Virus record (IMG/VR): IMGVR_UViG_3300017565_000001
Location: 77,741 to 141,740 of that record
Length of the DNA stretch: 64,000 bases
Source of the DNA: a virus
Taxonomy: Duplodnaviria > Heunggongvirae > Uroviricota > Caudoviricetes
Strand: one strand, 5' to 3'
The notes beneath the pieces were generated by a model, which worked only from the letters and a program-made list of their open reading frames with translations, searched no databases and was not told the origin of the DNA. Below, piece by piece: positions 1-60,018 of this stretch; position 1 is the first letter of the stretch; every line of letters starts with the position of its first letter. Position numbers and translations under genes: made by a program.

Positions 1-177
1 ACCCTGCATGGCATCGTATGAGTGAACAATGGACCAATCGTTAACGAGTGATTCGCCCAACAGGAAAGTTTGAGTGTACGCCTTGACTGTATTCACCCTA
101 AACAACGAAAGTCGTGGCATACTGGAGAACCAGAAATTGGGTTGTCGATCATAATCTTGCATACCGTTATCGCTCAT
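1..177 (-). CDS. hypothetical protein, partial (N-terminal ~59 aa; gene continues beyond window start)
   Basis: ATG at 177-175 on the minus strand overlaps the TGA of the upstream gene (ATGA overlap). The reading frame stays open to position 1. Confidence 0.4.
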   Translation of the reverse strand, partial: MSDNGMQDYDRQPNFWFSSMPRLSLFRVNTVKAYTQTFLLGESLVNDWSIVHSYDAMQG

Positions 178-665
178 ACTATTGCCCTTGGTTCAACCCT
201 TACGTTCAGAATACGGAGGGCATTGTAAAAGTTGTCACAGCTGAGTCCATCATGCGCGAACACTTGCACGAAATGACCTCGTTGTTCATGTAGAAAGTCC
301 ACACGATCATCAAAAATCACGTATGGCACAATGAGTGGTGACAGATCATGGTCAGTGAAATATTGTCTGACTTCCATACCACGCCGCTCACCAGGCAAAT
401 ATGGGGTTGACCCCACGATATCAACCTGCAGGAAGTCAGCAAGCTGCGCCTCCATCCCTTCTTGATGGCGCCACGAAGTCGACAGAACAGTCTTTGCGCC
501 GGTTTCACGGACAAAGCGTCTGTAGAGCTTTACTGCAATGGGATCAAAATACGGCTCCCAGGTGGTGGGATCGTAATCCTTAGGAGCTTGTCCCAAGGCG
601 GCAACAGAGCGGCTGCTATTCAGCACACCGTCAATGTCAAGAAAGGAAAGTTTGAGATCATCCAT
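174..665 (-). CDS. HAD-superfamily phosphatase-like protein
   Basis: N-terminal LSFLDIDGVL matches HAD motif I (DxDGV/T). FDDR lies near the C-terminus. Size 163 aa. Confidence 0.5.
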   Translation of the reverse strand: MDDLKLSFLDIDGVLNSSRSVAALGQAPKDYDPTTWEPYFDPIAVKLYRRFVRETGAKTVLSTSWRHQEGMEAQLADFLQVDIVGSTPYLPGERRGMEVRQYFTDHDLSPLIVPYVIFDDRVDFLHEQRGHFVQVFAHDGLSCDNFYNALRILNVRVEPRAIV

Positions 666-4855: not shown

Positions 4856-6109
4856 ATGTCAGAAGCGGATAAGAACCTGCATTGCTCCTTTTGTGCGAAG
4901 GACTCTCGCGAAGTCAAGAAGCTAATCCAAGGCCCAGGTGTTTATATTTGCGATGAATGTGTGGATTTGTGCCACTCGATTCTGAGCGATAGTATAGACG
5001 TATCAAAAGCCAAGGAAACAGCACCATCAGTTCAAGACGCTATCCCAAGCCCTAGTAAATTGAAGTCGTACCTTGACCAATATATCATTGGTCAAGACTA
5101 CGCGAAGATGGTTGTGAGTGTAGCTGTTCACAATCATTACAAGCGACTCGCTCATCCCGTTGTTGATGACGTTGAGCTGGAAAAGAGCAACATTTTGTTG
5201 TTCGGCCCTACAGGATCTGGTAAGACTCTGATTGCTCAATCCATTGCCAAGTATTTGGATGTTCCATTCGCAATGGCCGATGCCACTAGTTTGACTGAAG
5301 CAGGCTACGTGGGTGATGATGTCGAAAGCATTGTCACCAAACTCCTGCAAGCAGCTGGCGGTGACGTCCAGAAAGCAGAACGCGGCATCATCTATCTGGA
5401 TGAAATCGACAAGAAGCACAAGAAGGAAGGCGGAAGTAATTCCAAGGATGTTTCAGGGGAAGGCGTGCAACAAGCTCTTCTGAAGATCATTGAAGGTTCG
5501 GAAGTCATGGTTCCAACTGGTGGCAACAAAAAGAGCCCCCAGTCCGAGATGGTAAAGATCAACACCAAGAACATTTTGTTCATTGTCGGTGGCGCGTTTG
5601 TGGGTCTGGAGAAGGTAGTATCCAAGGCCATGCAAAACGGTCCCACGGTTGGTTTTGGTTCTACTGCTCGTGGTGAAAAGCCCGTAAACGAAGTTCTGCG
5701 TCACACACGTCCGGAACACCTGGTTGGTTTTGGTATTATTCCAGAATTGATTGGTCGTTTGCCCGTCCATGCTCCATTGGAAGAACTCTCTAGCGATCAA
5801 CTTGTTCGCGTGTTGACTGAACCCAAGAATGCCGTTATAAAGCAATTCGTCAAGATGTTTGAACTCTCCGGGGTTGAATTGTCCTTTGATGAAAAAGCGC
5901 TTCAGGAAGTAGCCAAGATTGCCAAAGAACGTAAAACTGGTGCTCGAGGTCTCCGTAGCGTTATCGAAAACAAGTTGGTGAAGACTCAATTTGACCTGCC
6001 TGAGTTGAAAGAACAAGGAGCAGTTAAGATTGTGATCGACGCTGACACCATCACAAGCGACAAAGAGCCACATGTCGTTTACTCTGAACAAACTGATGTG
6101 GCCAAATGA
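4856..6109 (+). CDS. clpX: ATP-dependent Clp protease ATP-binding subunit ClpX
   Basis: N-terminal C4 zinc finger (CSFCAK...CDECVDLC). Walker A LLFGPTGSGKTL. Also YVGDDVESI and IYLDEIDK. A VGF loop sits at the position of the ClpP-binding IGF loop. Confidence 0.9.
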   Translation: MSEADKNLHCSFCAKDSREVKKLIQGPGVYICDECVDLCHSILSDSIDVSKAKETAPSVQDAIPSPSKLKSYLDQYIIGQDYAKMVVSVAVHNHYKRLAHPVVDDVELEKSNILLFGPTGSGKTLIAQSIAKYLDVPFAMADATSLTEAGYVGDDVESIVTKLLQAAGGDVQKAERGIIYLDEIDKKHKKEGGSNSKDVSGEGVQQALLKIIEGSEVMVPTGGNKKSPQSEMVKINTKNILFIVGGAFVGLEKVVSKAMQNGPTVGFGSTARGEKPVNEVLRHTRPEHLVGFGIIPELIGRLPVHAPLEELSSDQLVRVLTEPKNAVIKQFVKMFELSGVELSFDEKALQEVAKIAKERKTGARGLRSVIENKLVKTQFDLPELKEQGAVKIVIDADTITSDKEPHVVYSEQTDVAK

Positions 6110-6121
6110 GGATTATTTTTC

Positions 6122-6658
6122 GTGTCAATTAAATTGGAAGTGAATGAGCGTATTCGTGCAACCCAGGTTCGTCTCATTGATGAGACTGGGGCACAGAAGG
6201 GCATTCGCAGTCTGCGCGAAGCTATTAACTACGCTCAATCACGTGATCTGGATCTCGTGAAGATTGCAGATGCCACTCCGCCAGTGTGCAAGGTCTTGGA
6301 TGCTGGCAAGTACCTATATGAACAGCAAAAGCAACAGAAGGCTCACGCCAAGAAACAACGAGCTGCTCAAGTTGAAACCAAGGAAGTTCAATTGCGTCCG
6401 GTAACGGACACGAATGATATGAAGATCAAAGCTCGCAAAGCCAGAGAGTTTCTGGCTGACGGCAATAAGGTCCGAGTAGTCATGCGCTTTCGTGGTCGAG
6501 AAGCTGCCCACAAGCAGATTGGTACGACATTGATGGAATCCTTTATGGCTGAGGTTGGGGACTCCAAGATCGAACAGGCACTCAAAGACAGTGGTCGTGA
6601 GTTGAGTTTGATCCTGGCACCTGCTCCGGCACCCAAGCCTGCACCCGTTGTAGAGTAA
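6122..6658 (+). CDS. infC: translation initiation factor IF-3 homologue
   Basis: Collinear with bacterial IF-3: VNERIRATQVRLID...GIRSLREAI...DLDLVKI...PPVCKVLDAGKYLYEQQK...KEVQLRPVTDTNDMKIKARKAREFLADGNKVRVVMRFRGREAAHKQIG...LSLILAP. Start codon is GTG. Ala/Pro-rich tail. Confidence 0.85.
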   Translation: MSIKLEVNERIRATQVRLIDETGAQKGIRSLREAINYAQSRDLDLVKIADATPPVCKVLDAGKYLYEQQKQQKAHAKKQRAAQVETKEVQLRPVTDTNDMKIKARKAREFLADGNKVRVVMRFRGREAAHKQIGTTLMESFMAEVGDSKIEQALKDSGRELSLILAPAPAPKPAPVVE

Positions 6659-9870: not shown

Positions 9871-10194
9871 ATGTCGTACCGTATGTTCATTGATGACGAC
9901 CGATTCCCTCCTGGGGATGAAAATGATTGGGCGATCTGCCGCAATCTGTTTGAAGTCCAACTGGTGATCGATCATGAGGGAATGCCATCATTCATCTCGT
10001 TCGACCACGACTTGGGCGCAAATCAACCGTCTGGTATGGACATCACTAAGTGGTTGGTTGAGTCTGAATTGGATGGAAAGCTTTCTTTTCCTGAGGATTT
10101 CGACTTTTACGTCCACAGCCAGAATCCCACTGGCGCTGGTAATATCGAGGGTCTACTTCGACAATATTTGCAACAACGCAAGATTGCACCTTGA
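9871..10194 (+). CDS. hypothetical protein
   Basis: 107 aa, acidic. Translationally coupled to the kinase gene. Confidence 0.45.
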   Translation: MSYRMFIDDDRFPPGDENDWAICRNLFEVQLVIDHEGMPSFISFDHDLGANQPSGMDITKWLVESELDGKLSFPEDFDFYVHSQNPTGAGNIEGLLRQYLQQRKIAP

Positions 10195-10251
10195 CTAATT
10201 GGCTTGCCAATCGTAAACTGACTTACATGCTAATCATCTCGGTAAGGACCC

Positions 10252-10548
10252 ATGACTGACACCACTCTCCAAAACCAGACCGTCACCAAGACCGCTACGA
10301 TCTCCTTGTGGAATCTGATCCTGCTGAATGACGATTTCACCCCGATCGACTTCGTGATGCAAGTGCTGATTGAACTCTGTGGCAAGACTGATCAAGAAGC
10401 ATACGCAATCACGATGGACATTCACAACACTGGGCGTGGCGTCGTTTCGACCTACACGGAAGAAATCGCCAAGCAAAAGGCCCACGACATCACGCTGATC
10501 GCCGCGCAGAACAAACATCCGCTCAAAGCGATCGCTGAAGAAGCATAA
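10252..10548 (+). CDS. clpS: ATP-dependent Clp protease adaptor ClpS
   Basis: LILLNDDFTPIDFVMQVL...HNTGRGVVSTYTEEIA...QNKHPL is collinear with the ClpS core (VILVNDDYTPMEFV...HYQGKAICGVFTAEVAE...ENEHPL). Confidence 0.85.
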   Translation: MTDTTLQNQTVTKTATISLWNLILLNDDFTPIDFVMQVLIELCGKTDQEAYAITMDIHNTGRGVVSTYTEEIAKQKAHDITLIAAQNKHPLKAIAEEA

Positions 10549-10570: not shown

Positions 10571-10600
10571 GGGGAGAACAATTGTTCTCCCCATCAACTT
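10571..10600 (+). terminator. intrinsic terminator
   Basis: GGGGAGAACAATTGTTCTCCCC hairpin followed by a T-rich tract. Confidence 0.6.
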
Positions 10601-10633
10601 TTCCAGCTTACATTTTGACAACATGATTTCGCA

Positions 10634-12205
10634 ATGTTAAAGTGTAGCCACAGAATAAGCTGTCAACCAACAATAAGAACAATGATTAGACAGAAAAAAT
10701 ACGGTAATGATTGGGCAATATTTTTGCCCTCGATTTCACAAATGTACGTTTTGGCACATGCAAAGGGCTGGGGTCGTATGCCAGTTGACTTTGATCTGCT
10801 GAACTTCGTTGATGAAGCGAACGCTCATCACTTCCACTATCCATACGCCCTGTATTCGGCCGGCCATGCTTACTTGGATCCCCAAAAGAGCAATGAACGT
10901 GAACCCATGATTCAAGGCCGTGATCGTACCAAGACGATTATGGTTGGTGACTCGGGTGGGTTCCAGGCCGCAACCGGCGTCCTGGATTTTGACTGGCAGG
11001 ATCCATTGAGCCAGAAGTCGATCGATCAACGCTTGGAGTTGATGCGCTGGCTTGAGCACACGGCCGAATACAGTATGGTTCTTGATTGGCCGGCTTGGGC
11101 TATTGACACTGGACGTCTGCCTCAAACCCTTATGGTTGCAGATCCCACGACTTCGCCCATGCAAGTCACGAACGATCCGTTCAACAACTGCTTGAAGGGC
11201 ACAATCTGGAACAATGAATTCTTCATCAAGAATCGCACACCAGGAGCCACCAAGTTCCTAAACGTTCTGCAAGGTCGTTCAATCGACGAAGCAAACGTGT
11301 GGTATGACGCAGTGAATCAGTTCAGCAGTGTTGAGAAGTATGGTGATCGAGCATTCGAGGGTTGGGCTCTGGGGGGTAGCACCGGGGGCGATCCCAGCCT
11401 CACCATGCGTCTTTTGATTCGACTGCGCGACGACGGACACCTTAATGGTGATGATCGCTGGATTCACGTCCTAGGGCGTTCCAGGCTGTCAACTGCCGTG
11501 TACTTGACGTCACTGAACCAAGCACTCAAACAACACGTAAATGAGAACTGTCAGATCAGCTACGACGCATCAAGTGCGTTCCTGTACTCGGTTAATGGCA
11601 CATACGTGACTGACTTCAATGTGTCACCCAAGCATATGGGTCTAGTGAGCGCTGACATTCCAATGGGTGCTCAATACGTGGGAAGCAAGGAACCCTTCAT
11701 CTATGCAGGTGTGTCTGCTGATCGTTTGGCCGATCCCACCCACTATAAGTCACCAGCCAGCAAGTTGCTGACTATGGGTGATTTGATTCTAGCTCCTGAC
11801 GAAAAGTCCAAGAAGCCATACAGGATGGATACTGCGTCCTACTATTACTTGATGGCGCATAATGTCCAGATGCAATTGAATGCTCTGGAATATGCAAACG
11901 CAAAACTGGACGCCCCCGATGCTGTGGATCATATTCCTGCCATCTTCCTGGAATTCAAGGACTTTGTGCATCGTTTGTTCACTACCGAAACGCCCATGGA
12001 TTTGATCGAACGTGAAGCTGGTAAGTTCAAGGATTTGATTTCTGGTGAGCGTGCTGGTGTTAGCGCACTGGAAAATCAAGAACTGTTCCCCAAGACAGCT
12101 GGTCTGGAAACGATCACGACTGACAACCGCGCCAAGAAGAAGGCACAAAAGCCGCCCAAGCCCGTGGAACCCACTAGTATGTTGGACGCTTTGCTGGCCA
12201 AGTGA
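10634..12205 (+). CDS. dpdA: DpdA-like DNA transglycosylase (tRNA-guanine transglycosylase superfamily)
   Basis: GDSGGFQ catalytic-Asp motif of TGT/DpdA. GWALGGSTGGD at the TGT GG-loop position. No CxCxxC...H zinc site, as in DpdA. Start likely at one of the ATGs at 10743-10790. Basic KKKAQKPPKP tail. Confidence 0.65.
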   Translation: MLKCSHRISCQPTIRTMIRQKKYGNDWAIFLPSISQMYVLAHAKGWGRMPVDFDLLNFVDEANAHHFHYPYALYSAGHAYLDPQKSNEREPMIQGRDRTKTIMVGDSGGFQAATGVLDFDWQDPLSQKSIDQRLELMRWLEHTAEYSMVLDWPAWAIDTGRLPQTLMVADPTTSPMQVTNDPFNNCLKGTIWNNEFFIKNRTPGATKFLNVLQGRSIDEANVWYDAVNQFSSVEKYGDRAFEGWALGGSTGGDPSLTMRLLIRLRDDGHLNGDDRWIHVLGRSRLSTAVYLTSLNQALKQHVNENCQISYDASSAFLYSVNGTYVTDFNVSPKHMGLVSADIPMGAQYVGSKEPFIYAGVSADRLADPTHYKSPASKLLTMGDLILAPDEKSKKPYRMDTASYYYLMAHNVQMQLNALEYANAKLDAPDAVDHIPAIFLEFKDFVHRLFTTETPMDLIEREAGKFKDLISGERAGVSALENQELFPKTAGLETITTDNRAKKKAQKPPKPVEPTSMLDALLAK

Positions 12206-12429
12206 TGGAAGATACCATTCTATTCTTCAAAGCCGAGTATTTGGGTGAAGTTAGGGAATGGCTCGAGGCCATGGGGGTTAACCCCCATGACGCCCTAAGC
12301 AAATTCCCCAAGTTACGGATAGATGGAATTGAGATCTTGATCCTCCCAGATCCGGATCTACAGATGATGTTCAAGCTCGCATTCAGCCATGCCGTATCAA
12401 ACAAATCAATCAAGATAACAAAGATATGA
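12202..12429 (+). CDS. small protein of the FKL(R/A)F-motif family
   Basis: Contains DPDLQMMFKLAFSH near the C-terminus. Paralogous to the 12900 gene. Confidence 0.5.
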   Translation: MMEDTILFFKAEYLGEVREWLEAMGVNPHDALSKFPKLRIDGIEILILPDPDLQMMFKLAFSHAVSNKSIKITKI

Positions 12430-12495
12430 TTGACGTTTGCTACTAATTGACAACGGGCCACCAATAAGCCATACTGAATACACTAACAAGGAACT

Positions 12496-12903
12496 TTGAT
12501 GTATAACAACCCCGTCCCCGTAGCTGTGGGGATTGTGCCAGTTTATGGCGATGATCAAACCGAACGCTTTCTGTTTATTCGCCGAGCAGTGGCACCAATT
12601 GGTGGTGTGGCTTGTGTGAGTGGGTACGTTGATGAACACGAATCCGCAGAACAAGCAATGGCAAGGGAATTCAAGGAAGAGGTTGGTATCGAGACTCTTC
12701 CAGAAAATTGGGTTGTGTTTGCCACCCGCTGCTCGGCGCACAATCGTCTGTTGGTATTCATGAAGCTAGTCAACTACCTGGTTCATGAAGATGACCTGAA
12801 TAGCTTTGTGCCCAATACCGAGGTTTCGGAAGTTCTAGTGGGCGATCGCCATACTGAACTTGTGTTCCCTTTGCAATCGGAAATTCTCAGCAAGCTCCCG
12901 TGA
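12496..12903 (+). CDS. Nudix hydrolase
   Basis: Nudix box GYVDEHESAEQAMAREFKEEVGI (GX5EX7REUXEEXGU). Confidence 0.8.
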   Translation: MMYNNPVPVAVGIVPVYGDDQTERFLFIRRAVAPIGGVACVSGYVDEHESAEQAMAREFKEEVGIETLPENWVVFATRCSAHNRLLVFMKLVNYLVHEDDLNSFVPNTEVSEVLVGDRHTELVFPLQSEILSKLP

Positions 12904-13166
12904 AGATCTATCACATTCACTATCAACAGATTGACGCAGTTACTCAATGGTTATTGGACAACAACGTCAAGCAGGAGAGTAATCCCCTACAATACTTGTC
13001 GGGGGTAGCGTCAGGCAATTCGTCTCGTCCCCTGAGAATGGTTCGCATATGGACTAGTGAAAAGAATTCGAAGCCATCAGGCTATTATGTGAACATCGAA
13101 GACCCCAATCTGATGGCAATGTTTGTTCTGGCCTTTAGTGAATACATCAAGGCTTACGATTTGTAA
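12900..13166 (+). CDS. small protein of the FKL(R/A)F-motif family
   Basis: Contains DPNLMAMFVLAFSEY. Paralogue of the 12202 gene. Confidence 0.5.
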   Translation: MKIYHIHYQQIDAVTQWLLDNNVKQESNPLQYLSGVASGNSSRPLRMVRIWTSEKNSKPSGYYVNIEDPNLMAMFVLAFSEYIKAYDL

Positions 13167-13224
13167 TTTGCAAATAACCACATCCACACCTATACTAAAC
13201 ACTCCATAAAACAAGGATAACAAC

Positions 13225-13743
13225 ATGGATCGCAATCAACCTGTACGTTTCTTCAAGGGCCTGGAAATCGAGGCCACCAACCACTTCCTGCAACCCACCA
13301 TGATCGCCCCTGGCCAGTATGACTACCAGGAATGCAAGGACATGGTTGTTGAACACAACTGCACTCACATTCTGATCGGTTTCATGTATGATCCGGCTGG
13401 TAATCCGCTGGATATGGACATTCCTCGTGCGTTCGAAACCGCCAACAAGCTGATGGCTGATGGCATTCGCGTCACTCTGGAAATTCGTCCGGACCAACTG
13501 ACTGACGAGTTCGTGGCAGCTTGCCCGGAACCCGACAGCGAATTCGGTAAGCTGTTCGTGATCCTGATCGGTACCCGCTTCCCCCGTATGGACAAGATCG
13601 GTGCCTACACGACGCTGAAGCTGCACAGTGATTTCGGCAACACCGAAAACGGTGGCGTGTGGTGTGTGAAGGCTGAAGACTTTAAGGAAGCTGGCATCTT
13701 CACTCCTTGGGTAGCTTACGAATTCGACGAGCACCTCAAGTAA
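13225..13743 (+). CDS. hypothetical protein (codon-optimised, probably abundant)
   Basis: 172 aa. Strong C/G third-position codon bias unlike neighbouring genes. Confidence 0.55.
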   Translation: MDRNQPVRFFKGLEIEATNHFLQPTMIAPGQYDYQECKDMVVEHNCTHILIGFMYDPAGNPLDMDIPRAFETANKLMADGIRVTLEIRPDQLTDEFVAACPEPDSEFGKLFVILIGTRFPRMDKIGAYTTLKLHSDFGNTENGGVWCVKAEDFKEAGIFTPWVAYEFDEHLK

Positions 13744-14452: not shown

Positions 14453-15091
14453 TTGACTCTTGCACCAAACATAGGATACATTATGACGTATGACGTCAAA
14501 ACTGAGGCGGCGCTTGCGCAATTGCGGCCCATTCCGTATAGCTTCTCGTTTATCGAAATGCGAAAATACTTCGCTACGGTTCGAGTTGCTCAGGAACATC
14601 CGGCCGTATTCAAGCAGGGTATGCGCAACATTCATGGCTTCACTGATGAGCGACTTGATGCCGAGGTGAATAGTTCCTTCGATAAGAAGGTGTACTCGTT
14701 CATGTTGAACATCATGTTGGTCGAATATGAGCTGGACGAATTCAAAAATCTACAAGAATACGAGGCTTTGCCGTACTCCCTTTTGGGCCTCGCTCACTTG
14801 TACGCCTCAGGTACTGTTCGCCAAGATCAAGCAAAAGCTCTGTTTGATATGGTGATGGGAAGGCCGGGACTTAAGCTGGATGAAATTCTGATCCTAACCA
14901 ATTTTCTTCAGGAACAACCCATCGCCAACCTGGATGCCATCATCATGCAGGTCATCGCCAACAATCCCAAGCCCATCCAGGAATACAAATCTGGCAAGGA
15001 GAAGGCACTGGGTGCTGTCATGGGTCAAATCATGAAACAAGTTAAGGGTGACGCTTCTGCAATTCGTTCCCGTTTGTTGGAACTCATCTGA
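14453..15091 (+). CDS. GatB/YqeY-domain-containing protein
   Basis: C-terminal IQEYKSGKEKALGAVMGQIMKQVKGDASAIRSRLLEL matches the YqeY/GatB C-terminal domain (YKAGKEK...G.FVGQVMK.TKGKANP). Confidence 0.55.
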   Translation: MTLAPNIGYIMTYDVKTEAALAQLRPIPYSFSFIEMRKYFATVRVAQEHPAVFKQGMRNIHGFTDERLDAEVNSSFDKKVYSFMLNIMLVEYELDEFKNLQEYEALPYSLLGLAHLYASGTVRQDQAKALFDMVMGRPGLKLDEILILTNFLQEQPIANLDAIIMQVIANNPKPIQEYKSGKEKALGAVMGQIMKQVKGDASAIRSRLLELI

Positions 15092-15119: not shown

Positions 15120-15887
15120 GTGTATCATCTGGTTCTTATTCATTTAGGGGGTACCATGGCTGCTGATCGTGCAAGTTTTATTGACCTGATCATCAATGAT
15201 AATGGCGTCACGTTCGGCGCCCTTAAGCTTTCCGAGATCATGGCACAGGGCAAAACCCAAGAAGCAGTCTTGGCCCGCCAGGATTACCTGGCACATCCAG
15301 CAGTAAGGGCTGCGAGCGAATCCGACCTTTTTCACATCGAGCGCTGGTTCACCCATGCAATCGAAACCACCAAAGTCATTCGTGGCCGAGAGATGGAATA
15401 TTTCCTGGAGCGATATCGCCAATATGGCCTTGACGTAGAAACGTCCGTGGGTCCGCGTCCCTACAGCTTCAGCGTGACTCACCACCATGACGGGGTACCG
15501 TACGCTCTGTACCACAATCAAGCCCACGTCGGCCAGTTTGATGTGTCCAAGGTAAAGCACAACATGGAGCACATCCTGCCTTTGATCGAGCGCCATCATG
15601 ACATGATCAAAAGCATTTACGATTACCTGAAAATGAAAGTTGAGGGAGATCTATGGGTCTTGAGTGGTGGTGGTTCCCAGCTGCAAGCATTCTTCACCAA
15701 CAAGACTGGCTATTTGGGTATCTTGTATCTGGACATGGTGAATCTGAGTGATCAGACCCGTTTGAGTGATAGTGGTTTACTCAAAGCCTCTGGGAACGAA
15801 TCGTTCACCCTTGTACCCAATTTCGACCACAACAAAACGCTGTTCAAGAATATGAAAGTACCAGGGGTTAAAGTACGACGTGCCTAA
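15120..15887 (+). CDS. hypothetical protein
   Basis: 255 aa ORF. Start possibly at 15156. Confidence 0.5.
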   Translation: MYHLVLIHLGGTMAADRASFIDLIINDNGVTFGALKLSEIMAQGKTQEAVLARQDYLAHPAVRAASESDLFHIERWFTHAIETTKVIRGREMEYFLERYRQYGLDVETSVGPRPYSFSVTHHHDGVPYALYHNQAHVGQFDVSKVKHNMEHILPLIERHHDMIKSIYDYLKMKVEGDLWVLSGGGSQLQAFFTNKTGYLGILYLDMVNLSDQTRLSDSGLLKASGNESFTLVPNFDHNKTLFKNMKVPGVKVRRA

Positions 15888-16125
15888 ACTCTTGTACCTG
15901 GTCGTCACCGGGATTCCTTCTCCCGGTGACATGACACCGGCATTTTTTGACTTGCTGGACTTCATCAACAATGTTGGTACTGATCAATGTTCATTCTCCA
16001 GAATGAACAAATCGCTCTATGAGAAGCACCATGAAGCCATGATCATTTTCAAGGATCAGAACGATTATGTGCGATTCAAACTGCGATTTTCTGATGACTT
16101 TGCTATACGAACGGCCCACTGTTAA
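15880..16125 (+). CDS. small protein of the FKLRF-motif family
   Basis: C-terminal NDYVRFKLRFSDDF. Confidence 0.5.
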   Translation: MPKLLYLVVTGIPSPGDMTPAFFDLLDFINNVGTDQCSFSRMNKSLYEKHHEAMIIFKDQNDYVRFKLRFSDDFAIRTAHC

Positions 16126-22352: not shown

Positions 22353-23567
22353 TTACATGGTTTGATTTTGCATATATTGCAACAAAGCCTCACGTGACAC
22401 GTTGCAATCGTTGTAGAACCAGTATTCCCGCAGGCGCTTCAACGCCGCACCCAAGTCAGGACCAGGTTTCACACCCAACGCCTTTAAGTCATCACCACTG
22501 ACCGGAAACGTCGCTAATTGAAACTTACCGTCCAGGCCTCGCTTCAGCAAATTAACGGCGTAGTCAACATCAAAGTAAACTGCCGCGGCAAAAACCAACT
22601 CCAGCTTCCGCCCCATGACGAAATACTGATACAGGATTTCGGTCGCAGTGACAGCGTAGTCATATGAGACGATGTGCTTGACTACGTCGCGTTCAGCGGA
22701 ACGCCATTTCAATGCCTTGGCAGTTTGCTCAACATGTGCTTCATCGCGCATGAAAGGTGCGAGCAAAACAGCCGCCTGATTACCAAGCATGTGCCGAGCC
22801 ATACTGTCGTGCAACTTTTTGAACCATTCCATGGACGCGGAATCACCGTTAGGCAGAGCAGTATGCTCACTCAAACCCATCTCCATCATGAGGGGATAGA
22901 TCCAATAGCCGCTGAAATGTTCGAGGATCTTGGATGTTTCAGTCCAGATCCGTTCGACACTGATGCCACGCAATCCATGAACACAGTTGCGGATTTCTTG
23001 CTCGGGCAATATGGACTTCAGCTTTTCAGGATGCGGTTGCACTGGATGCATACGGCCCAAGAAACGAAAATAGCGCAAGATGCGCAGATAGTCTTCCGTC
23101 ATACGACCTTCTGCATCACCAACAAAGCGGACGATTCTGTTTTCCAGATCAGCTTGGCCGCCGAAAGGATCCAACAGATTGCCGTCGAAATCAAGCGACA
23201 TTGCATTGATGGTGAGGTCACGACGTGACAAGTCTTCAACCCAGTCACGAGTGTAGGTCATCTTAGCGTAACGGCCGTCGTGCTCGTCCTCAGTACGCAG
23301 ACTGGTGATCTCGTAGGATTCATCCTCCAGAACTACAGTCAGTGTGCCATGCTGCAAGCCCGTTTCCACATACTTGATGCCATGCTTCTGATACAATGCC
23401 AATTGCTCATCAGGGAAGGCGTCAGTGCAGAGGTCCACGTCATGGGGCGGCTCGTTGTTCAGATAATCTCGCACACACCCGCCAACCAAACGCAGGTCAA
23501 AGCCCTCCTGTACGAACAAGTCGCGCAGCGCACGCAAGGGAAGAGGTATCATTTGATTGAGGTGCAT
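22353..23567 (-). CDS. cca: tRNA nucleotidyltransferase (CCA-adding enzyme), class II
   Basis: GGCVRD head motif and RDLTINAM. 404 aa. Confidence 0.85.
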   Translation of the reverse strand: MHLNQMIPLPLRALRDLFVQEGFDLRLVGGCVRDYLNNEPPHDVDLCTDAFPDEQLALYQKHGIKYVETGLQHGTLTVVLEDESYEITSLRTEDEHDGRYAKMTYTRDWVEDLSRRDLTINAMSLDFDGNLLDPFGGQADLENRIVRFVGDAEGRMTEDYLRILRYFRFLGRMHPVQPHPEKLKSILPEQEIRNCVHGLRGISVERIWTETSKILEHFSGYWIYPLMMEMGLSEHTALPNGDSASMEWFKKLHDSMARHMLGNQAAVLLAPFMRDEAHVEQTAKALKWRSAERDVVKHIVSYDYAVTATEILYQYFVMGRKLELVFAAAVYFDVDYAVNLLKRGLDGKFQLATFPVSGDDLKALGVKPGPDLGAALKRLREYWFYNDCNVSREALLQYMQNQTM

Positions 23568-36549: not shown

Positions 36550-37899
36550 TTGGCGCCAGATCAGCTATACTGGCACCTGTTCCTATTCGTCACCGGAGAA
36601 AATATTTTGATTGACACCTTTTTCGCATTGCTGGCACTAATTATCGTGTCGGCAGTGTTGCAGAATCGATACAAGATTCCGTCACCCATCACCCTCATCA
36701 CGGTCGTTCTTGCTGGTAAAGCCGCAGGCATGAACGTGTTCTCGGTCACCGGTTCAGGATTCGATGCCTTGGTGGTGTTGGCGTTCCCACTACTCATTGC
36801 GGCTGATGCCATGAAACTGAAATGGGCAGACATGCGCGAACACTGGGCCAGTTTGGTCTGGGTTGCAGGTGTGTCCGTCATCTTCAGTGTGTTGGCGGGT
36901 GTGGTACTGAACAAATTCTTGTTCCTGGATATTCCTCTGACTCTCAGCGCTGTTGCGGTTCTGTTCTGCATCATCAGTGCAACCGACCCCGTGACAGTAA
37001 GTGCCGTGATGGGCAACTTCAAAGTACCGCACAAGCTGAAGATTCTGGTCGAGGGTGAAAGCCTGTTGAACGACGCAACGGCCATTATTGCATTCAGCAT
37101 TGCGCTCATTGCACTGAACTCTCACGATGCTATCACCATGGAATTCGTTGGCACCAAGATCATTAGCGTGATTTGCGGCGCCGCGGTAGTGGGTGCCACG
37201 TTGGGTTTGCTGTCGTTCCGATTGCTGCGCATGAGTGAAGATCCGTTGATCGAAGCATCCATTCTGATCATGACCGCATACGCATCCTATATCGTGGCTG
37301 AAATGTTCCACTTCAGTGGAATCCTGGCTGTGATTGTGAGCATTGTGCTCTGCAGTGAAAAGATTCGCCGACTGCTAGACGGCCAGGTTACGGTGAGTGG
37401 TCTGACTGATGACTTTGGATTGTTGCGTCATACTCCCATGACAGCCGAAAACCACAAGTTCATCACCAAGATCTTTGAATTTGCGGCGATGATGGCTGCT
37501 GGTGCTCTGTTTGTGTCGATCGCTGCTCTGGTCAATTTCAGTGATATGCTCCTGTACTGGAAGGAAATCATTGCTATCTTCATCGTCAGCACCCTGATTC
37601 GATCAGTCACCATGTTGAAGTTTGCGATCGTCAGCAACAAGTCCAACATGATGAAAGCAAAGATCAGCAAGCATTGGTGGTCGGTTCTCACGTTTGCTGG
37701 CAGCAAGGGTGCGATAAGTATCTTGATGGTACATATGATCCCTGACTCCTTTGAGTACAAGAAGCTCTTTGAAGTCATCGTGATCGGCAACATTATTTTG
37801 AGCACGTTTGTTTACGCGGCTGTACTGGCTATCGTAATCCCGCTCAACAAAGCAAAATTTGACAAGGAAGTCGACGACGAAGTGGCTGCTGGCCACTGA
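36550..37899 (+). CDS. CPA1-family Na+(K+)/H+ antiporter
   Basis: About 11-12 TM helices. SATDPVTVSAVMG and EGESLLNDATAIIAF are signature motifs. Confidence 0.8.
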   Translation: MAPDQLYWHLFLFVTGENILIDTFFALLALIIVSAVLQNRYKIPSPITLITVVLAGKAAGMNVFSVTGSGFDALVVLAFPLLIAADAMKLKWADMREHWASLVWVAGVSVIFSVLAGVVLNKFLFLDIPLTLSAVAVLFCIISATDPVTVSAVMGNFKVPHKLKILVEGESLLNDATAIIAFSIALIALNSHDAITMEFVGTKIISVICGAAVVGATLGLLSFRLLRMSEDPLIEASILIMTAYASYIVAEMFHFSGILAVIVSIVLCSEKIRRLLDGQVTVSGLTDDFGLLRHTPMTAENHKFITKIFEFAAMMAAGALFVSIAALVNFSDMLLYWKEIIAIFIVSTLIRSVTMLKFAIVSNKSNMMKAKISKHWWSVLTFAGSKGAISILMVHMIPDSFEYKKLFEVIVIGNIILSTFVYAAVLAIVIPLNKAKFDKEVDDEVAAGH

Positions 37900-37924
37900 A
37901 TAAACTCTAACCTGTAGGTGAAGT

Positions 37925-39211
37925 ATGAAGAAGCGTAATTATTTGATGGTGGGCTACGGCTCTGTGGCTCAAGGTTTGACTCCCCTGCTGTTCAAGCATT
38001 TTGATATAACGGCAGACCAGATTCAGATCCTGACAGCTGATCTCAGAGGTAAAGAGATTGCTGACAAATATGGGATCCCCTTTACGGTGGAACCCCTAAC
38101 ACCAGACAACTATGAACGCTTATTGAGCACTCATTTGCAGGCTGGTGACATCCTGATCAACTTGTCAGTTGACGTGTCCAGCTACGCATTGGTTGAATGG
38201 TGTTTGGAACATGGCGTCATGTACACTGACACCTGTGTGGAACCGTGGGCTGGTGGTTATGGACTCCAAAGCGGAGATCAACCCCTAACCAACGCTCAAC
38301 TACGTGACAATATTTTGACCCTGCGTGAAACGTTTGGTGCTGACGCACCCACGGCTCTTATTGCGCATGGTGCGAATCCAGGTTTAGTGTCCCATTTCAT
38401 GAAGCGTGGTCTCCACGAGATGGCGAAGAACCAACGACTTGACGTTGACGATCTGTCTTTTGGGGAAGTTGCCGAACTTCTAGGGATCAAGACGATTCAC
38501 ATAGCGGAAGTGGACACACAAGAGGATGGCATTCCCCTTAAGTCGGGTGAATTTGCCAATACTTGGTCTGTCGATGGTTTATTGTCAGAAGGCTATCAGT
38601 TTGCTGAAATGGGTTGCGGTACCCATGAAGAATTGGGCATCAGTGCGACGACTGGTACTCATGGAGCAACTACCAAAGTTCGTTCATGGGTACCGAGCCA
38701 GGGTGAGCAAGAAGCTTACATGATCACGCACCACGAAGCTCTGTCTATCAGTGCATTTCTGGATACTGGTAAGTATCGCCCGTCAACCTATTACGCATAT
38801 CGACCGTCACCAAAGACGTGCCAGTCAATCGATAATTGGGTAGAAGATCAATTCAAAGATCCTGAAATAAAAACGCTCATGGGCCCTACCATCAAGTCTG
38901 GCTATGACGAGCTGGGAGTTTTGTTCGTCACTTCAGTTGGCTCTTATTGGTATGGTTCCACACTGAATCATCAAGATGCAATTTCCTTGATCGATCACAA
39001 CAGTGCAACCACCCTTCAAGTCACTGCGACTATTATCGGTGGCCTTAAGTGGATGCTTGAGAACTCTCGCAAGGGTGTGGTCGAAGCGGAAGACACGGAT
39101 TCAGACTTCATTCTGAATCAAGCATTGCCATATCTGGGTGATGTTCGTGGCGTCTCCACTGACTGGACCGTTAGCGATTTGAGCATCAAAGGTTTTCTGA
39201 AAAGTTGTTGA
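37925..39211 (+). CDS. homospermidine-synthase-like / saccharopine-dehydrogenase-fold enzyme
   Basis: Rossmann fold MVGYGSVAQGLTPLLFKHF resembles the HSS N-terminus. 428 aa. Confidence 0.6.
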   Translation: MKKRNYLMVGYGSVAQGLTPLLFKHFDITADQIQILTADLRGKEIADKYGIPFTVEPLTPDNYERLLSTHLQAGDILINLSVDVSSYALVEWCLEHGVMYTDTCVEPWAGGYGLQSGDQPLTNAQLRDNILTLRETFGADAPTALIAHGANPGLVSHFMKRGLHEMAKNQRLDVDDLSFGEVAELLGIKTIHIAEVDTQEDGIPLKSGEFANTWSVDGLLSEGYQFAEMGCGTHEELGISATTGTHGATTKVRSWVPSQGEQEAYMITHHEALSISAFLDTGKYRPSTYYAYRPSPKTCQSIDNWVEDQFKDPEIKTLMGPTIKSGYDELGVLFVTSVGSYWYGSTLNHQDAISLIDHNSATTLQVTATIIGGLKWMLENSRKGVVEAEDTDSDFILNQALPYLGDVRGVSTDWTVSDLSIKGFLKSC

Positions 39212-39263
39212 TTTGGTAGTGCCAGTTGTTTAGGCTGGCACACCTTAACTTCTACCTATAAAA

Positions 39264-39638
39264 ATGAAACGATCCGCAGTTATTCCGCTCCTGATGCTTG
39301 GCACTCTGTCACTCACCGCTTGTGGTGATGGTGGTGATAAGGTTGACACCAAACAAAACCGCTATTCGTCAGTTGAAGATTGCCGCCGTGATTGGGGTAA
39401 CGATTCGCGTGACTGTACTCCCAGAAGCGGGGGCGGCTATGTGGGCCCGCATTACTTTTGGAACCATTCAACCGGCACGCCCATGGCGGTTGGATCGGAT
39501 GGTTCGACTCGCGCACTCTCAAATTCGTATTTGACCCGCCCTGGTGCGGTGTCTGCTGCGACTGGTACCACTTCACAGAGCTCGATTGCTCGTGGTGGTT
39601 TTGGGTCTTCGGCCCGTGCTTCCTCTGTTGGTGGCTAA
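39264..39638 (+). CDS. DUF1190 (YgiB/YjfM-like) lipoprotein
   Basis: Lipobox LSLTAC. C-terminal IARGGFGSSARASSVGG matches the YgiB C-terminus TRGGFGES...SRSMGG. Confidence 0.6.
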   Translation: MKRSAVIPLLMLGTLSLTACGDGGDKVDTKQNRYSSVEDCRRDWGNDSRDCTPRSGGGYVGPHYFWNHSTGTPMAVGSDGSTRALSNSYLTRPGAVSAATGTTSQSSIARGGFGSSARASSVGG

Positions 39639-40759
39639 TGGAACGTCTTCATGTTATGGCTCGGCCAGATAAGGCCGAGAAGCTGGAAAGTATCGGCCTG
39701 TCGTTCCATGGTTGGGATGACTATTGGAACGAAGACGTGTGTTATCGTTTCACGGCAAAGCAAGTTGATGAACTGGAAGAGGCCACAAACGAATTGCATT
39801 CCATGTGTCTTCGAGCAGTCAAGCATGTGATCGATACCCGCCGATTTGCTGAGCTGGGTATTCCCGAAGCATACTGGGATGCAATCGCCAAGTCTTTCGA
39901 ACAAAGCGACTTCACGCTTTATGGTCGGTTTGACTTCGCGTATGATGGCGTGAATCCTCCCAAGATGCTCGAATACAATGCTGACACGCCAACCAGTCTG
40001 CTGGAGAGCGCCGTCGCACAATGGTATTGGATGGAAGACAAGTTTCCAGATGCTGACCAATTCAATTCTCTGCATGACAAGTTGGTTGCTCGCTGGAAAG
40101 CCCTCGATCCCAAGTATCACACTATTCACTTCGCTTCAATCTCTGAAAACGAGGAAGACTGGGTATGCGTCCATTACTTGATGGAAACTGCAATCCAGGC
40201 TGGTCGCATTGCTCGTCACATCTATGTTGAAGACATTGGCTACAATGAAAAGAGTGAAACGTTCGTTGATGTCAATGGTGATGAGATCCTGGCTTTGTTC
40301 AAACTGTACCCCTGGGAGTGGTTGATGGTTGAGGAATTTGGCCAGCACGTTGCCAAATCCAAGACATTGTTTATCGAGCCCATGTGGAAGTCAGTCCTGA
40401 GCAACAAGGGAATTCTGGCTATCTTGTGGGAATTGTTCCCCGATCATCCCAACCTGTTGCCTGCATATCTGGAACCCAACAAGCTGTCATCGTACGCAAA
40501 GAAGCCATTCTTCTCACGTGAAGGTGCGAATGTCGAACTGATTCAAGATGGCAAACAAGTTGCTGCCGACGAAGGTCCCTACGGTGCAGAAGGCCATGTC
40601 TATCAGCAACTCACTGAATTACCGGTATTCGAAGGATGCTATCCAGTCGTTGGCTCATGGGTTGTTGGTGACGAGTCGGCTGGTATTTGCATTCGCGAAG
40701 ATGTGCTGAAGATCACCACCAACATGAGCAATTTCATCCCCCACTATTTCACTGAATAA
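39639..40759 (+). CDS. glutathionylspermidine-synthase-like ATP-grasp amidoligase (YgiC/YjfC family)
   Basis: FDFAYDGVNPPKMLEYNADTPTSLLE is the GspS pre-ATP-grasp signature. About 373 aa. Confidence 0.75.
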
Positions 40760-40774
40760 TCAAGGAGCTTTAAC

Positions 40775-41167
40775 ATGAATCTTACCCCTTTCTTCAATTT
40801 CATCCTGTACTTCTTCACAGGGCTGGTCCTGCTGGGCGTCTTCACCTACATGTACGAAAAGGTCACGCCGTACCGTGAATTCGAACTCATCAAGGAAGGC
40901 AATGTTGCCGCAGCCATTGCACTTGGTGGCGCGATGCTGGGTTTCGTGATCCCGCTCTGCAGTGTGATCTATTTCACCCATAGCCTGGTTGAAATGATCA
41001 AGTGGGCGATTGTAGTTGGTGTGGTGCAACTCATTACCTTCGAAGTCATTCATCGCTTGCATGGTTTTGGTGATTGCGTCAAAGAAGGTCGGGTTGCTGG
41101 TGCAGTATTCCTGGCTTTCAGCTCGATCTCGGTTGGTTTGCTGAACGCACTGAGTATCAGCTACTAA
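40775..41167 (+). CDS. DUF350 (YjfL-like) inner-membrane protein
   Basis: YEKVTPYREFELIKEGNVAAAIALGGAMLGFVIPL matches the DUF350 core. Confidence 0.65.
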   Translation: MNLTPFFNFILYFFTGLVLLGVFTYMYEKVTPYREFELIKEGNVAAAIALGGAMLGFVIPLCSVIYFTHSLVEMIKWAIVVGVVQLITFEVIHRLHGFGDCVKEGRVAGAVFLAFSSISVGLLNALSISY

Positions 41168-57623: not shown

Positions 57624-58034
57624 ATGTTTTGGAATCGAATGATTCGATGGTGCAGGGAAATATTGTTCAAGATCAATCCAGTTAGTGGCATCCTGCTGAC
57701 TGCCAATATCGATGAGTTGAAGCCAATAGGAAAGATTCACGCCATGAAATCAAATGTTGGCGTGATATGGCCATCTCAATATCCCAAGACCTTGCGGTCA
57801 CTGTCCAGCAACATCGTATTGGTCTACCCACCAGAAGTTGAAGAATATTTGGAATCCGTGGGCGCCGTCAAAATGGTAAACACTGATATTGGATTTTATA
57901 TCAATGGTGCTTACACGGACGACATCACCCTACTTAAGGCTCGATTGACGTTTCTGAACCAAGAACCACTCGTTCAGGGTTTGGTGTTTGCCCAAACCTA
58001 TCAAGTAGTTGATTTCAAGTTGAGGTTCATGTGA
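57624..58034 (+). CDS. array member 1 (FKLRF-family)
   Basis: Ends VVDFKLRFM. Its stop overlaps the GTG start of member 2. Confidence 0.55.
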   Translation: MFWNRMIRWCREILFKINPVSGILLTANIDELKPIGKIHAMKSNVGVIWPSQYPKTLRSLSSNIVLVYPPEVEEYLESVGAVKMVNTDIGFYINGAYTDDITLLKARLTFLNQEPLVQGLVFAQTYQVVDFKLRFM

Positions 58035-58372
58035 AATTCTTTATCGAACTATTCAAGAAGGTAAGGCATCGCATCGCTCCTCAATCATATGGCCACGTCG
58101 TCGTGATCGATCGTCGAACGCACGAACATCTTACCATGGGATGGCATCAAGCGTGCAATCCTAATGCTAAACTGCATTGGATGATTATGGCTGCCGATGT
58201 TCAAGAATTCATAGGAGCCAGAGGTGGACGGGTTCTCCCCAATAATTTGGAGGGCTTGAGTACCTTCTACGACTTCCCACCCAGTGAACACGAACAAGAC
58301 CAATATATGCTCCATCGAATTTCATTCCCTGATGAAGAATCTGTGGTGATGTTCAAATTGCGTTTCATGTAA
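58031..58372 (+). CDS. array member 2
   Basis: Ends SVVMFKLRFM. Confidence 0.55.
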   Translation: MKFFIELFKKVRHRIAPQSYGHVVVIDRRTHEHLTMGWHQACNPNAKLHWMIMAADVQEFIGARGGRVLPNNLEGLSTFYDFPPSEHEQDQYMLHRISFPDEESVVMFKLRFM

Positions 58373-58384
58373 GGAATCACATCA

Positions 58385-58738
58385 ATGTTTATGATGAAGC
58401 TACTCAATGAGTTGTTTGAACCGGAGCCACCAAAACCCATACATCGTATGATCAAATTCAATCTGGAGTCTCGAGATGATTTGGCCGACGCTTTTGAGGA
58501 AATTGAACCTGGCCCTCGTTATGTAATGGATTCGAACCAACGTGTTCATGATTTCAACATACCGAGAGTGGTGAAATTCAATGAGGAGGTTGAACGCTTC
58601 TTTATTGACAGGCAGGTCAAAAAGAAGGCTATCTATAGTATGTTCACTCGTTACACGGCAAAAGGCATGGACTTCAGACAAACTCTGTTTTTCGCTTGCG
58701 ACGAGGACATGATCGAATTCAAGCTGAGGTTCTTGTGA
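58385..58738 (+). CDS. array member 3
   Basis: Ends MIEFKLRFL. Confidence 0.55.
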   Translation: MFMMKLLNELFEPEPPKPIHRMIKFNLESRDDLADAFEEIEPGPRYVMDSNQRVHDFNIPRVVKFNEEVERFFIDRQVKKKAIYSMFTRYTAKGMDFRQTLFFACDEDMIEFKLRFL

Positions 58739-58968
58739 TTCAATGGACATTCAGTGATGCCTCGATAAACGAAGGCAAGCGATTCTTCGTTGATCCCGAA
58801 ACCTCAAACTTGGCGGAATTGTTAAAGCCGGAGATTGAAGAGTTCATGGATCAACATGGAATAGTCAAATATCCAAACAAAGAATATCAGGTCATAACAT
58901 TCGGTGCCATAACGCTTTATTTCCCATCAGAAGAAGTTTTGGTGGAGTTCAAACTTCGCTTCACATAG
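58735..58968 (+). CDS. array member 4
   Basis: GTG start in a GTGA overlap. Ends LVEFKLRFT. Confidence 0.5.
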   Translation: MIQWTFSDASINEGKRFFVDPETSNLAELLKPEIEEFMDQHGIVKYPNKEYQVITFGAITLYFPSEEVLVEFKLRFT

Positions 58969-59024
58969 CCTTTACAAATGGCAGAACTGCCAATAGAATT
59001 GGTGCATCACTTCCAGGGGAACTC

Positions 59025-59354
59025 ATGATTTTGTTTTTGGCCCGTCTTCTCAACTATTTGCGTTTCATGGTGAATCACCAGAAATATGGGCACGTGGTTG
59101 ACGTCGAAATCAACAAGTACGATTTTGTGAAAGTTGTGGCCTTCAGAATTGATTTGGGTTATGACTTCAAAGTTCAACCCACCCCAGAAATGAATGATAG
59201 GCTGCGATCGGTTGGCGCAAAAATAGGCCATGTCGAATGTGCCTATTTTTCTCTGGAGAATGAGGCTCGAGGTATGGCTCTCAAGGATCCTTGGGTGAAG
59301 TTTTATTTCCCCACGGCAGAAGCAGCCATTGTATTCAAGCTGGAATGCATGTGA
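59025..59354 (+). CDS. array member 5
   Basis: Ends AIVFKLECM. Confidence 0.55.
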   Translation: MILFLARLLNYLRFMVNHQKYGHVVDVEINKYDFVKVVAFRIDLGYDFKVQPTPEMNDRLRSVGAKIGHVECAYFSLENEARGMALKDPWVKFYFPTAEAAIVFKLECM

Positions 59355-59707
59355 TGTGGGAGAAGCTCAAAACCTTGTTGCGGCCAAGATTAGTGAAGAT
59401 CGCGCCCAAGACCTTCGGCCATCCTGTGACTTTTGATATTGGCCACCATATCGGTTTGGGTGATATCAATGGTCGATACTCCAAACAAAAATCCGATACC
59501 CAATACGTGTTTGTTCCATCCCAAGAGGTGGAAGAATTTCTGGATCAATTCGCTCATTCAGTGAATGTTTCTGATGTCGCAATCACGGATTTCATTGATA
59601 TTAATGCAATGTTGATTGGTGAATCAGTCAATTACGGCAAGGTGACAATAACTTTCTCCGATCCAGCGGTTGCTTGTATTTTCAGACTGCAATTCCTATG
59701 TCCATAA
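59354..59707 (+). CDS. array member 6
   Basis: TGATG overlap. Ends ACIFRLQFLCP. Confidence 0.5.
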   Translation: MWEKLKTLLRPRLVKIAPKTFGHPVTFDIGHHIGLGDINGRYSKQKSDTQYVFVPSQEVEEFLDQFAHSVNVSDVAITDFIDINAMLIGESVNYGKVTITFSDPAVACIFRLQFLCP

Positions 59708-60018
59708 GTTTGGAAAAATACCCCATAGAATCAATCAAAATCAAAGATACCGGAGATTGGTATGAACTCGGTATCTTGACGAAACCTATTGTGCTTGATT
59801 GGGGATCGAGGGAGCATATTGTTCATTTCAGATTTGGGGTAGCGTATGCTCTGCATCTTCCTGATGATATGATGGAGATAGTGTGCCTGAATCCCGAGCA
59901 AGTAGTATGGGTAGGGAATGAAGTTTTCCATCACCGTGAGAACTTCAATTGGCAAATTCTGTTCAAGTTTATGGTCTTTGATGCCAATCTCGCCACCCAA
60001 CTAAAACTCATGATATGA
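59698..60018 (+). CDS. array member 7
   Basis: Ends ATQLKLMI. Confidence 0.45.
   Translation: MSISLEKYPIESIKIKDTGDWYELGILTKPIVLDWGSREHIVHFRFGVAYALHLPDDMMEIVCLNPEQVVWVGNEVFHHRENFNWQILFKFMVFDANLATQLKLMI

Follow-up and report, generated by a model that had tools for sequence, protein, structure and literature searches.

A large, zinc-less DpdA-like subfamily of jumbo-phage transglycosylases with a tightly linked partner protein and a probable role in DNA-guanine exchange

Among the ways in which phages withstand restriction, the modification of DNA with 7-deazaguanines is a major one, and DpdA counts as its signature enzyme. The named subfamilies DpdA1 (phage 9g), DpdA2 (nt-1), DpdA3 (phiST) and DpdA4 (HVTV-1) are, like the protein discussed here, phage proteins with the fold of tRNA-guanine transglycosylase (TGT), and they are genomically linked to FolE, QueD, QueE and QueC. 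The active-site set of DpdA comprises D95, F99, D130, H181-G182, G206-G207, L236 and D256, and a structural zinc site, CxCx2Cx22H, has been described as conserved throughout TGTs and DpdA (PMC10164549). Here we compare with these enzymes an open reading frame (ORF) in a 64,000-nucleotide stretch of viral DNA (positions 77,741 to 141,740 of the IMG/VR record IMGVR_UViG_3300017565_000001, Caudoviricetes; this whole stretch is called the window below), which a prediction made from the letters alone had placed in the TGT/DpdA superfamily and connected with 7-deazaguanines in DNA. The ORF and the neighbouring gene on which the argument turns are the following:

10634 to 12205, plus strand: almost certainly a base-exchange enzyme of the TGT/DpdA superfamily, from a divergent jumbo-phage subfamily; 523 amino acids as called, 507 from the probable start
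13225 to 13743, plus strand: 172-amino-acid partner protein of the transglycosylase; alpha/beta fold, no library match

There is hardly any doubt that the first of these belongs to the TGT/DpdA superfamily. The two motifs by which the original prediction had recognised it, DSGGFQ and a GG loop, are present in the 523-residue product as G-D106-S-G-G-F-Q111 and A-L-G247-G248, and so could be located at D106-Q111 and G247-G248. Library searches returned no Pfam or NCBIfam match at E <= 1 and no PHROGs match at E <= 0.01, and across 63 diverse family members only two match PF01702, weakly (best E 0.0058). This says nothing against membership, because the validated DpdA1 (phage 9g) and DpdA3 (phiST) have no PF01702 match either (E. 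coli TGT scores 2.8e-168). Structural comparison, however, gave TGT-fold proteins as the best matches, with DpdA first, and a (beta/alpha)8 barrel of the TGT type; the matches and their scores were:

7ui4, DNA preQ0 insertase DpdA: 19.4
6fv5, QTRT2: 17.8
3unt, bacterial TGT: 17.7
1iq8, archaeosine TGT: 15.1
9ntn_B, Cap10: 15.1
unrelated TIM barrels: <= 11.9

Among viral models, Foldseek picked out nt-1 DpdA2 and phiST DpdA3 besides several phage proteins annotated as 'queuine tRNA-ribosyltransferases'; the comparison with DpdA2 consists of this Foldseek match to the nt-1 model (E 1.3e-10, TM only 0.44-0.49, 14% identity). The original assignment to the superfamily thus held: the first structural match is DpdA and not a non-TGT TIM barrel, and the catalytic aspartates fall into line with those of TGT, so that neither of the two adverse outcomes named beforehand occurred.

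The alignment of the catalytic residues was obtained by hhalign with a profile of the 63 diverse family members, which are 24-70% identical to the window protein. A 32-sequence profile gave no usable result against single sequences of TGT, DpdA1 and DpdA3 (probabilities <= 2%), and informative alignments came only with the diverse members from an exhaustive search; the DpdA1 reference profile is itself shallow, as the search for DpdA1 homologues gave only proteins >= 70% identical. Against E. coli TGT the 63-sequence profile aligned over 177 columns with a probability of 87% and E 4e-6, pairing the residues of the window protein and of E. coli TGT as follows:

GD106SGGFQ with TD89SGGFQ
LD151W with FD143E
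LQ213G with IQG
ALG247G248 with AVGG
VL280G with LMG
YD311A with FD264C

The same profile aligned with DpdA1 at E 2.2e-4, SYD311ASS being paired with SCD215SSS, and with DpdA3 at E 4.8e-5. D106, S107, G109, H278 and D311 are invariant in 63/63 members, while D151 is Asp in 62 and Glu in one; position 110 is Phe or Tyr and position 280 Leu or Phe throughout. More freedom is seen at position 213 (Gln in 54 and His in eight of the 63, with G214 kept in 59) and in the Gly loop, where position 247 is Ala or Gly and G248 is kept in 55. The conserved family residues correspond one-to-one to the active-site set of DpdA (PMC10164549), and each motif coincides with the C-terminal end of a beta-strand predicted for the barrel. 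Judged by this alignment, D106 (acid/base), D151 (base recognition) and D311 (nucleophile) are the catalytic candidates, and F110, Q213-G214, G247-G248 and L280-G281 would line the pocket.

The link to 7-deazaguanines, which the original prediction had drawn from the protein family, is borne out by the genomic context of the relatives. FolE, QueD and QueE are found 1-10 kilobases (kb) from the transglycosylase gene in four independent branches, and the distant loci compared, three of them from cultured phages, are:

L003 (branch P0060): FolE 1 kb downstream, QueE-like gene 3 kb downstream
L005 (branch P0118): FolE, QueD (PTPS) and QueE-like gene, all within <= 5 kb
L006 (branch P0037): FolE and QueE-like gene, plus redoxin, IMPDH/GMPR-like protein and phosphoribosyltransferase
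PA5oct (cultured): annotated 7-carboxy-7-deazaguanine synthase (QueE) 3 kb downstream, DNA polymerase just upstream
Vibrio phage 2.275.O (cultured): the gene heads a run of QueF, YhhQ-type transporter, QueC, amidotransferase-like protein, FolE and QueE
Phosso (cultured): primase and DnaB helicase directly beside the gene

The transglycosylase gene stands amid genes for DNA polymerase, primase, helicase and clamp loader in PA5oct, Phosso, L006 and the P0118 contig, and the module order recurring in IMG/VR is TGT-like gene, partner of 172-180 amino acids, GT1-like gene, FolE, QueE. An apparent scarcity of TGT-like genes beside FolE (1/80 loci) was an artefact of a 3-kb flank and was discarded. 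At two of the loci additional genes were noted. AUS03050 of 2.275.O (L008, 13729-14841), between the transglycosylase homologue and QueF, shows a weak likeness to Amidoligase_2 (PF12224, E 1.8e-4, just below the cut-off) and may be another modification enzyme. In L006 (16365-19195), FolE is followed by the redoxin, the IMPDH/GMP-reductase-like protein and the phosphoribosyltransferase, a set that could recycle the guanine freed by base exchange.

Two of the cultured phages have been treated in the literature. Hutinet et al. (2019) list 2.275.O with its synthesis genes and leave the DpdA columns empty, and according to Hutinet et al. (2023) all such phages now have a DpdA. PA5oct was said to have 'a deazaguanine synthesis/incorporation system' (Iyer et al. 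2021, PMC7824862). Its DNA resists cutting at G-containing restriction sites, which is restriction evidence for a G modification, and is attacked by nucleases specific for modified G; its genome has the pathway genes scattered, and no transglycosylase is named in that study (PMC12191111).

We regard the exchange of guanine in DNA for a 7-deazaguanine as the best-supported function of the family and as a probable one, because of this genomic context and the PA5oct phenotype. Fold, catalytic-residue alignment, conservation and gene linkage are shown directly, and from them and the context DNA is inferred to be the substrate. By analogy with TGT and DpdA, the chemistry might run as follows: D311 would attack C1' of the target guanine nucleotide, D106 would give a proton to the leaving guanine, with a covalent enzyme-nucleic acid intermediate as the result, and D106 would then take the N9 proton of the incoming 7-deazaguanine base, whereby the intermediate would be resolved. 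The base would be read by D151, Q213-G214 and the G247-G248 loop and sandwiched by F110 and L280. The phage's own double-stranded DNA would be the most likely substrate, modified after replication and with resistance to host restriction as the outcome, and the enzyme probably acts together with the conserved 172-amino-acid protein; for the phage of the window, DNA modification and anti-restriction would follow. The identity of the inserted base and the role of the partner can likewise be proposed by comparison only.

Several observations weigh against this view, the first being that the biochemistry of the family is argued by analogy. Searches of PDB sequences by phmmer and hmmsearch found nothing, whether with the single sequence or with the 32- or 63-sequence profile. 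The structural zinc site is missing, CxCxxC being present in 0/63 members, and family members differ greatly in the loop that follows G248, by which TGTs read the 7-substituent. No synthesis genes were found within 6-51 kb in the window and all seven close-clade loci, and the neighbourhood in the window is rich in RNA-repair and translation genes and contains no DNA replication genes. This last point leads to the main rival, which concerns the substrate, since in such a neighbourhood a tRNA substrate fits just as well: the protein could be a phage TGT that tunes translation by supplying tRNA, of the host or of the phage, with a precursor of queuosine or some other base. The window holds ClpS, cREC_REC, GatB_Yqey, a CCA-adding enzyme, RNA ligase, HAD_SAK_2 and IF3, the profile match to bacterial tRNA TGT (87%) at least equals those to DpdA1 and DpdA3, and the cluster of 2.275.O, which lies near an RNA ligase, makes preQ1, the substrate of the bacterial tRNA enzyme. 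We nevertheless hold tRNA to be an unlikely substrate. The protein lacks both a PUA domain and the zinc subdomain with which TGT touches the anticodon stem, the window is without tRNA genes, and in other lineages the gene lies inside DNA replication modules. It is the DNA of PA5oct itself that behaves as G-modified (PMC12191111), and the phage TGT homologues tested so far all act on DNA (PMC6884629, PMC10516641).

The lost zinc site and the variable loop also bear on what is exchanged. The window protein has Cys residues only at 4, 10, 186 and 306, and its profile alignment to TGT ends before the zinc subdomain; the place of the latter is predicted to be taken by two beta-hairpins and a C-terminal domain of helices, the domain carrying the conserved motif D399...Y403...M407-x-H-N410. 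A TGT-fold enzyme can therefore exist without the 'universal' zinc site. From the variability of the loop after G248 it follows that the inserted base may differ between clades or be no known deazaguanine. These features, together with the lack of local deazaguanine genes in the window's clade, would suit a non-canonical acceptor or donor, that is, attachment of a deazaguanine to protein as by Cap10 or exchange of a base other than a 7-deazaguanine. We consider this very improbable, as D151, Q213-G214, F110 and L280, which recognise guanine, are conserved as in guanine-exchanging enzymes, most of the family shows strong linkage to FolE and QueE, and no Cap9/QueC-like or CD-NTase gene is nearby.

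In the window itself, the original prediction had seen no folE, queD, queE or queC homologue in 64 kb, and three kinds of search concur with it: Pfam scans of the 85 ORFs found no FolE, QueD, QueE, QueC, QueF or YhhQ, tblastn of the 64 kb with 16 pathway proteins from related phages gave a best E of 0.12, and hidden Markov models (HMMs) of FolE and QueE returned nothing. The close relatives, which are 63-77% identical and reside on contigs of 290, 524, 524 and 141.5 kb, share with the window the gene order AAA_28, cREC_REC, ClpS, transglycosylase, variable slot, partner. In this close clade no GT1-like, FolE or QueE gene occurs within 6-10 kb, and in the window none within 51 kb downstream. 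A lack of synthesis genes in the phage cannot be concluded from this, because only 64 kb are visible of a genome of probably 290-520 kb; genes elsewhere in this large genome and the queuosine pathway of the host are equally possible sources of the base.

The RNA-repair, translation and proteostasis genes of the window comprise HAD_SAK_2, ClpX, IF3, cREC_REC, ClpS, a GatB_Yqey-domain protein and a CCA-adding/poly(A) polymerase-type enzyme, and they occupy these positions:

174 to 665, minus strand
4856 to 6658, plus strand
9871 to 10548, plus strand
14453 to 15091, plus strand
22353 to 23567, minus strand

An RNA ligase and a KTI12/AAA_33 kinase are found elsewhere in the window, and ARAGORN detected no tRNA genes in the 64 kb. 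A separate cluster at 36550-41167 codes for a Na+/H+ exchanger-like protein, a glutathionylspermidine-synthase-type ATP-grasp enzyme (PF03738, E 5e-151), a saccharopine-dehydrogenase-like protein and DUF350, and resembles polyamine metabolism; in the relative L015, genes for the saccharopine-dehydrogenase-like protein, the glutathionylspermidine-synthase-type enzyme and DUF350 lie 3-6 kb from the transglycosylase.

The closest companion of the transglycosylase is the 172-amino-acid protein encoded about 1 kb downstream, which the original prediction had overlooked. In L003 (E 2e-10) and L005 (E 6e-12) a homologue stands right after the TGT-like gene; the protein is present in 7/7 distinct close-clade loci, and has 36 database homologues on contigs of the same sizes as those with the transglycosylase. 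A survey centred on the partner listed 80 IMG/VR loci, in which FolE and QueE were counted within 6 kb. A TGT-like gene lies upstream on the same strand in 73 of the 74 loci with enough upstream sequence (median gap 199 nucleotides); among the 80 loci listed, a GT1-like gene is found in 74, FolE at <= 6 kb in 50 and a QueE-like gene at <= 6 kb in 22.

The GT1-like gene, of the GT-B glycosyltransferase type (L003, 8870-9970; L006, 14138-15301; PA5oct, L009, 11596-12657; 74/80 of loci L179-L258), accompanies the pair of transglycosylase and partner almost everywhere outside the window's clade (EST35_0317, directly downstream, in PA5oct), and hints at further decoration of the inserted base. The window carries at 61642-63911 (plus strand) an NAD-dependent sugar epimerase/dehydratase and a UDP-glucose/GDP-mannose dehydrogenase, and in L006 and the P0118 contig similar epimerase genes adjoin the transglycosylase module. 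It is tempting, though rather speculative, to see in transglycosylase, 172-180-amino-acid partner and GT1-like protein an undescribed DNA hypermodification module of jumbo phages, by which a 7-deazaguanine made by FolE, QueD and QueE, probably one derived from 7-carboxy-7-deazaguanine because QueC is usually absent, would be inserted and then decorated, for example glycosylated, to give a hypermodified guanine. Such a module might account for the G modification of PA5oct, and the lineage of the window would have been reduced to insertase and partner, using a base derived from the host.

Between transglycosylase and partner lies the slot that is filled differently in each relative. The features in it and directly upstream of the transglycosylase are:

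10571 to 10594, plus strand: perfect hairpin (tggggagaac aattgttctcccca), right after the ClpS stop codon, read from the sequence
10615 to 10643, plus strand: promoter-like site TTGACA-17 nucleotides-TAAAGT with TG extension, 10/12 matches, a consensus match only
12202 to 12429, plus strand: ORF of 75 amino acids, overlapping the transglycosylase stop codon by 4 nucleotides
12447 to 12475, plus strand: promoter-like TTGACA-type site before the Nudix gene, a consensus match only
12496 to 12903, plus strand: Nudix hydrolase (PF00293, E 1.4e-11, above the curated cut-off), likely start at ATG 12499
12900 to 13166, plus strand: ORF of 88 amino acids, with a C-terminal 16-residue motif in common with the 75-amino-acid ORF
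13167 to 13196, plus strand: promoter-like TTGACA-type site before the partner gene, a consensus match only

The hairpin is a likely transcript boundary 5' of the transglycosylase gene; it is without a clean T run and was not listed in the terminator scan. The true start of the transglycosylase is probably ATG 10682, giving 507 amino acids, because homologues begin at the position of M17, because the nearest relative, P0001, has 507 amino acids and is 98% identical, and because the -10 element of the promoter-like site overlaps the first ATG of the ORF. As promoter-like sites precede the Nudix and partner genes, transglycosylase, Nudix and partner may each be transcribed separately, the region showing nine such sites against 5.0 +/- 2.5 expected, all of them consensus matches only.

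The original prediction had placed the Nudix hydrolase immediately downstream of the transglycosylase, flanked by two paralogous small proteins, and had seen in it a nucleotide-sanitising partner. An intact Nudix gene is indeed there, its box G43x5Ex7REx2EExG (GYVDEHESAEQAMAREFKEEVG) complete from residue 43, but the 75-amino-acid ORF comes in between. The scores against all NCBIfam equivalogs for Nudix were far below the cut-offs. An orthologue occupies the same position in L014 (38% identity, E 2e-26), and the gene is absent from L001, L002, L015, L016 and L017, that is, it occurs in 2/7 distinct close-clade loci and in 0/6 distant ones. Since only L014 besides the window has an orthologue in the slot, whose small ORFs differ in each relative, the Nudix gene is a lineage-specific accessory insertion and not a conserved partner, and the proposed partnership is not supported; a role in the control of the nucleotide pool is possible but finds no support here either. 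A functional pair, in which the Nudix hydrolase would clear a competing nucleotide (for example deoxyguanosine triphosphate, dGTP) or a pathway intermediate, is in our opinion quite unlikely. It could appeal to the intact box and the orthologue in L014, to the MazG-type nucleoside triphosphate pyrophosphatase that adjoins FolE in the deazaguanine cluster of phiST, and to a weak NCBIfam likeness to dihydroneopterin-triphosphate diphosphatase (E 4.7e-5, far below the cut-off). Besides the patchy occurrence and the changing content of the slot, however, the promoter-like site of its own and the Nudix gene of Phosso speak against it. The latter, 6 kb upstream, was considered as an orthologue and dismissed as unrelated (E 1.8).

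Neither do the two small ORFs qualify as specific partners of the Nudix hydrolase, a notion that was rejected; they share a single 16-residue C-terminal stretch (BLASTP E 3e-4 in one comparison), which falls short of the paralogy that had been proposed. The 75-amino-acid ORF is weakly similar to L001_82 and L015_83 (E about 1e-3). The window contains a nine-member paralogous family of small proteins (81-138 amino acids) ending in '...F(K/R)L(R/A/E)F', located at 57624-60652 and 15880-16125 (both plus strand), eight of the nine in a tandem array; an iterated HMM retrieves 9/9 members and has 0 matches in shuffled ORFs. This HMM of the '...FKLRF' family retrieved neither small ORF at E <= 1e-3, and a search of seven sequences at full sensitivity gave E 0.004 for the 75-amino-acid and E 0.46 for the 88-amino-acid ORF.

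The family as a whole proved to be large. An exhaustive HMMER search over 1.84 billion cluster representatives (E <= 1e-3) yielded 1190 clusters at 50% identity, 450 of them at <= 1e-30, with members mostly on very large viral contigs. With family members as queries tblastn found only 13 records, namely the PA5oct group, Vibrio phage 2.275.O and Sinorhizobium phage Phosso, all 13 of them jumbo phages in which the protein is annotated as 'hypothetical protein'. The same search with phiST DpdA3 found only Cellulophaga, Chryseobacterium and Bacillus phages, a set disjoint from the former. Four family members had no PHROG match, while DpdA1 matches phrog_887 at 2e-98 and DpdA3 matches phrog_20335; PF20314, the DpdA4 signature, gave no match to the family, and the name 'DpdA5' was not found in the literature searched. 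We therefore regard the proteins as a large, uncatalogued, zinc-less DpdA-like subfamily with a tightly linked partner. Surveys based on DpdA1-4 or PF01702 would undercount deazaguanine-modified phages, because this family is missed by Pfam, PHROGs and NCBIfam and is hypothetical in cultured phages. It offers a concrete candidate for the transglycosylase that was missing from Vibrio phage 2.275.O and likewise for the enzyme responsible for the G modification, as yet unexplained, in the therapeutic jumbo phage PA5oct, and the roles of the tightly linked partner and of the glycosyltransferase-like gene are open to direct test.

Compared with the described systems, the protein combines familiar and unfamiliar traits. 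Its best profile alignment is with the bacterial tRNA TGT (E. coli/Z. mobilis), the catalytic and base-binding motifs being in register and DSGGFQ identical, but it lacks the zinc subdomain and a PF01702 match, stands in a phage context, and does not align before residue ~95 and after ~325. The homologue of PA5oct, EST35_0316, still hypothetical in GenBank, is 30.7% identical; the window's clade differs from PA5oct in having no GT1-like gene and no QueE nearby. The motifs of DpdA1 (DSGAF, H-G, LGG, HGFG, CDSSS) are in line with those of the family, whose members, however, have ~500 amino acids against 259-317 in DpdA3 and DpdA1, and neither a partner gene nor a GT1-like gene has been described for the named subfamilies DpdA1-4. 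The DpdA of Salmonella Montevideo (7UI4, Dpd system) shares with it the TIM barrel, the three aspartates of the active site, the Gly loop and the sandwiching of the base between an aromatic residue and Leu (PMC10164549), and a double-displacement mechanism is presumed for both. The sequence identity is just 13%, the CxCx2Cx22H zinc site is not in the window protein, and the latter exceeds DpdA by ~100 residues and has a helical C-terminal domain of another kind; where the Dpd system has DpdB (a ParB-like ATPase) and DpdC, the gene of the window has the 172-amino-acid partner instead.

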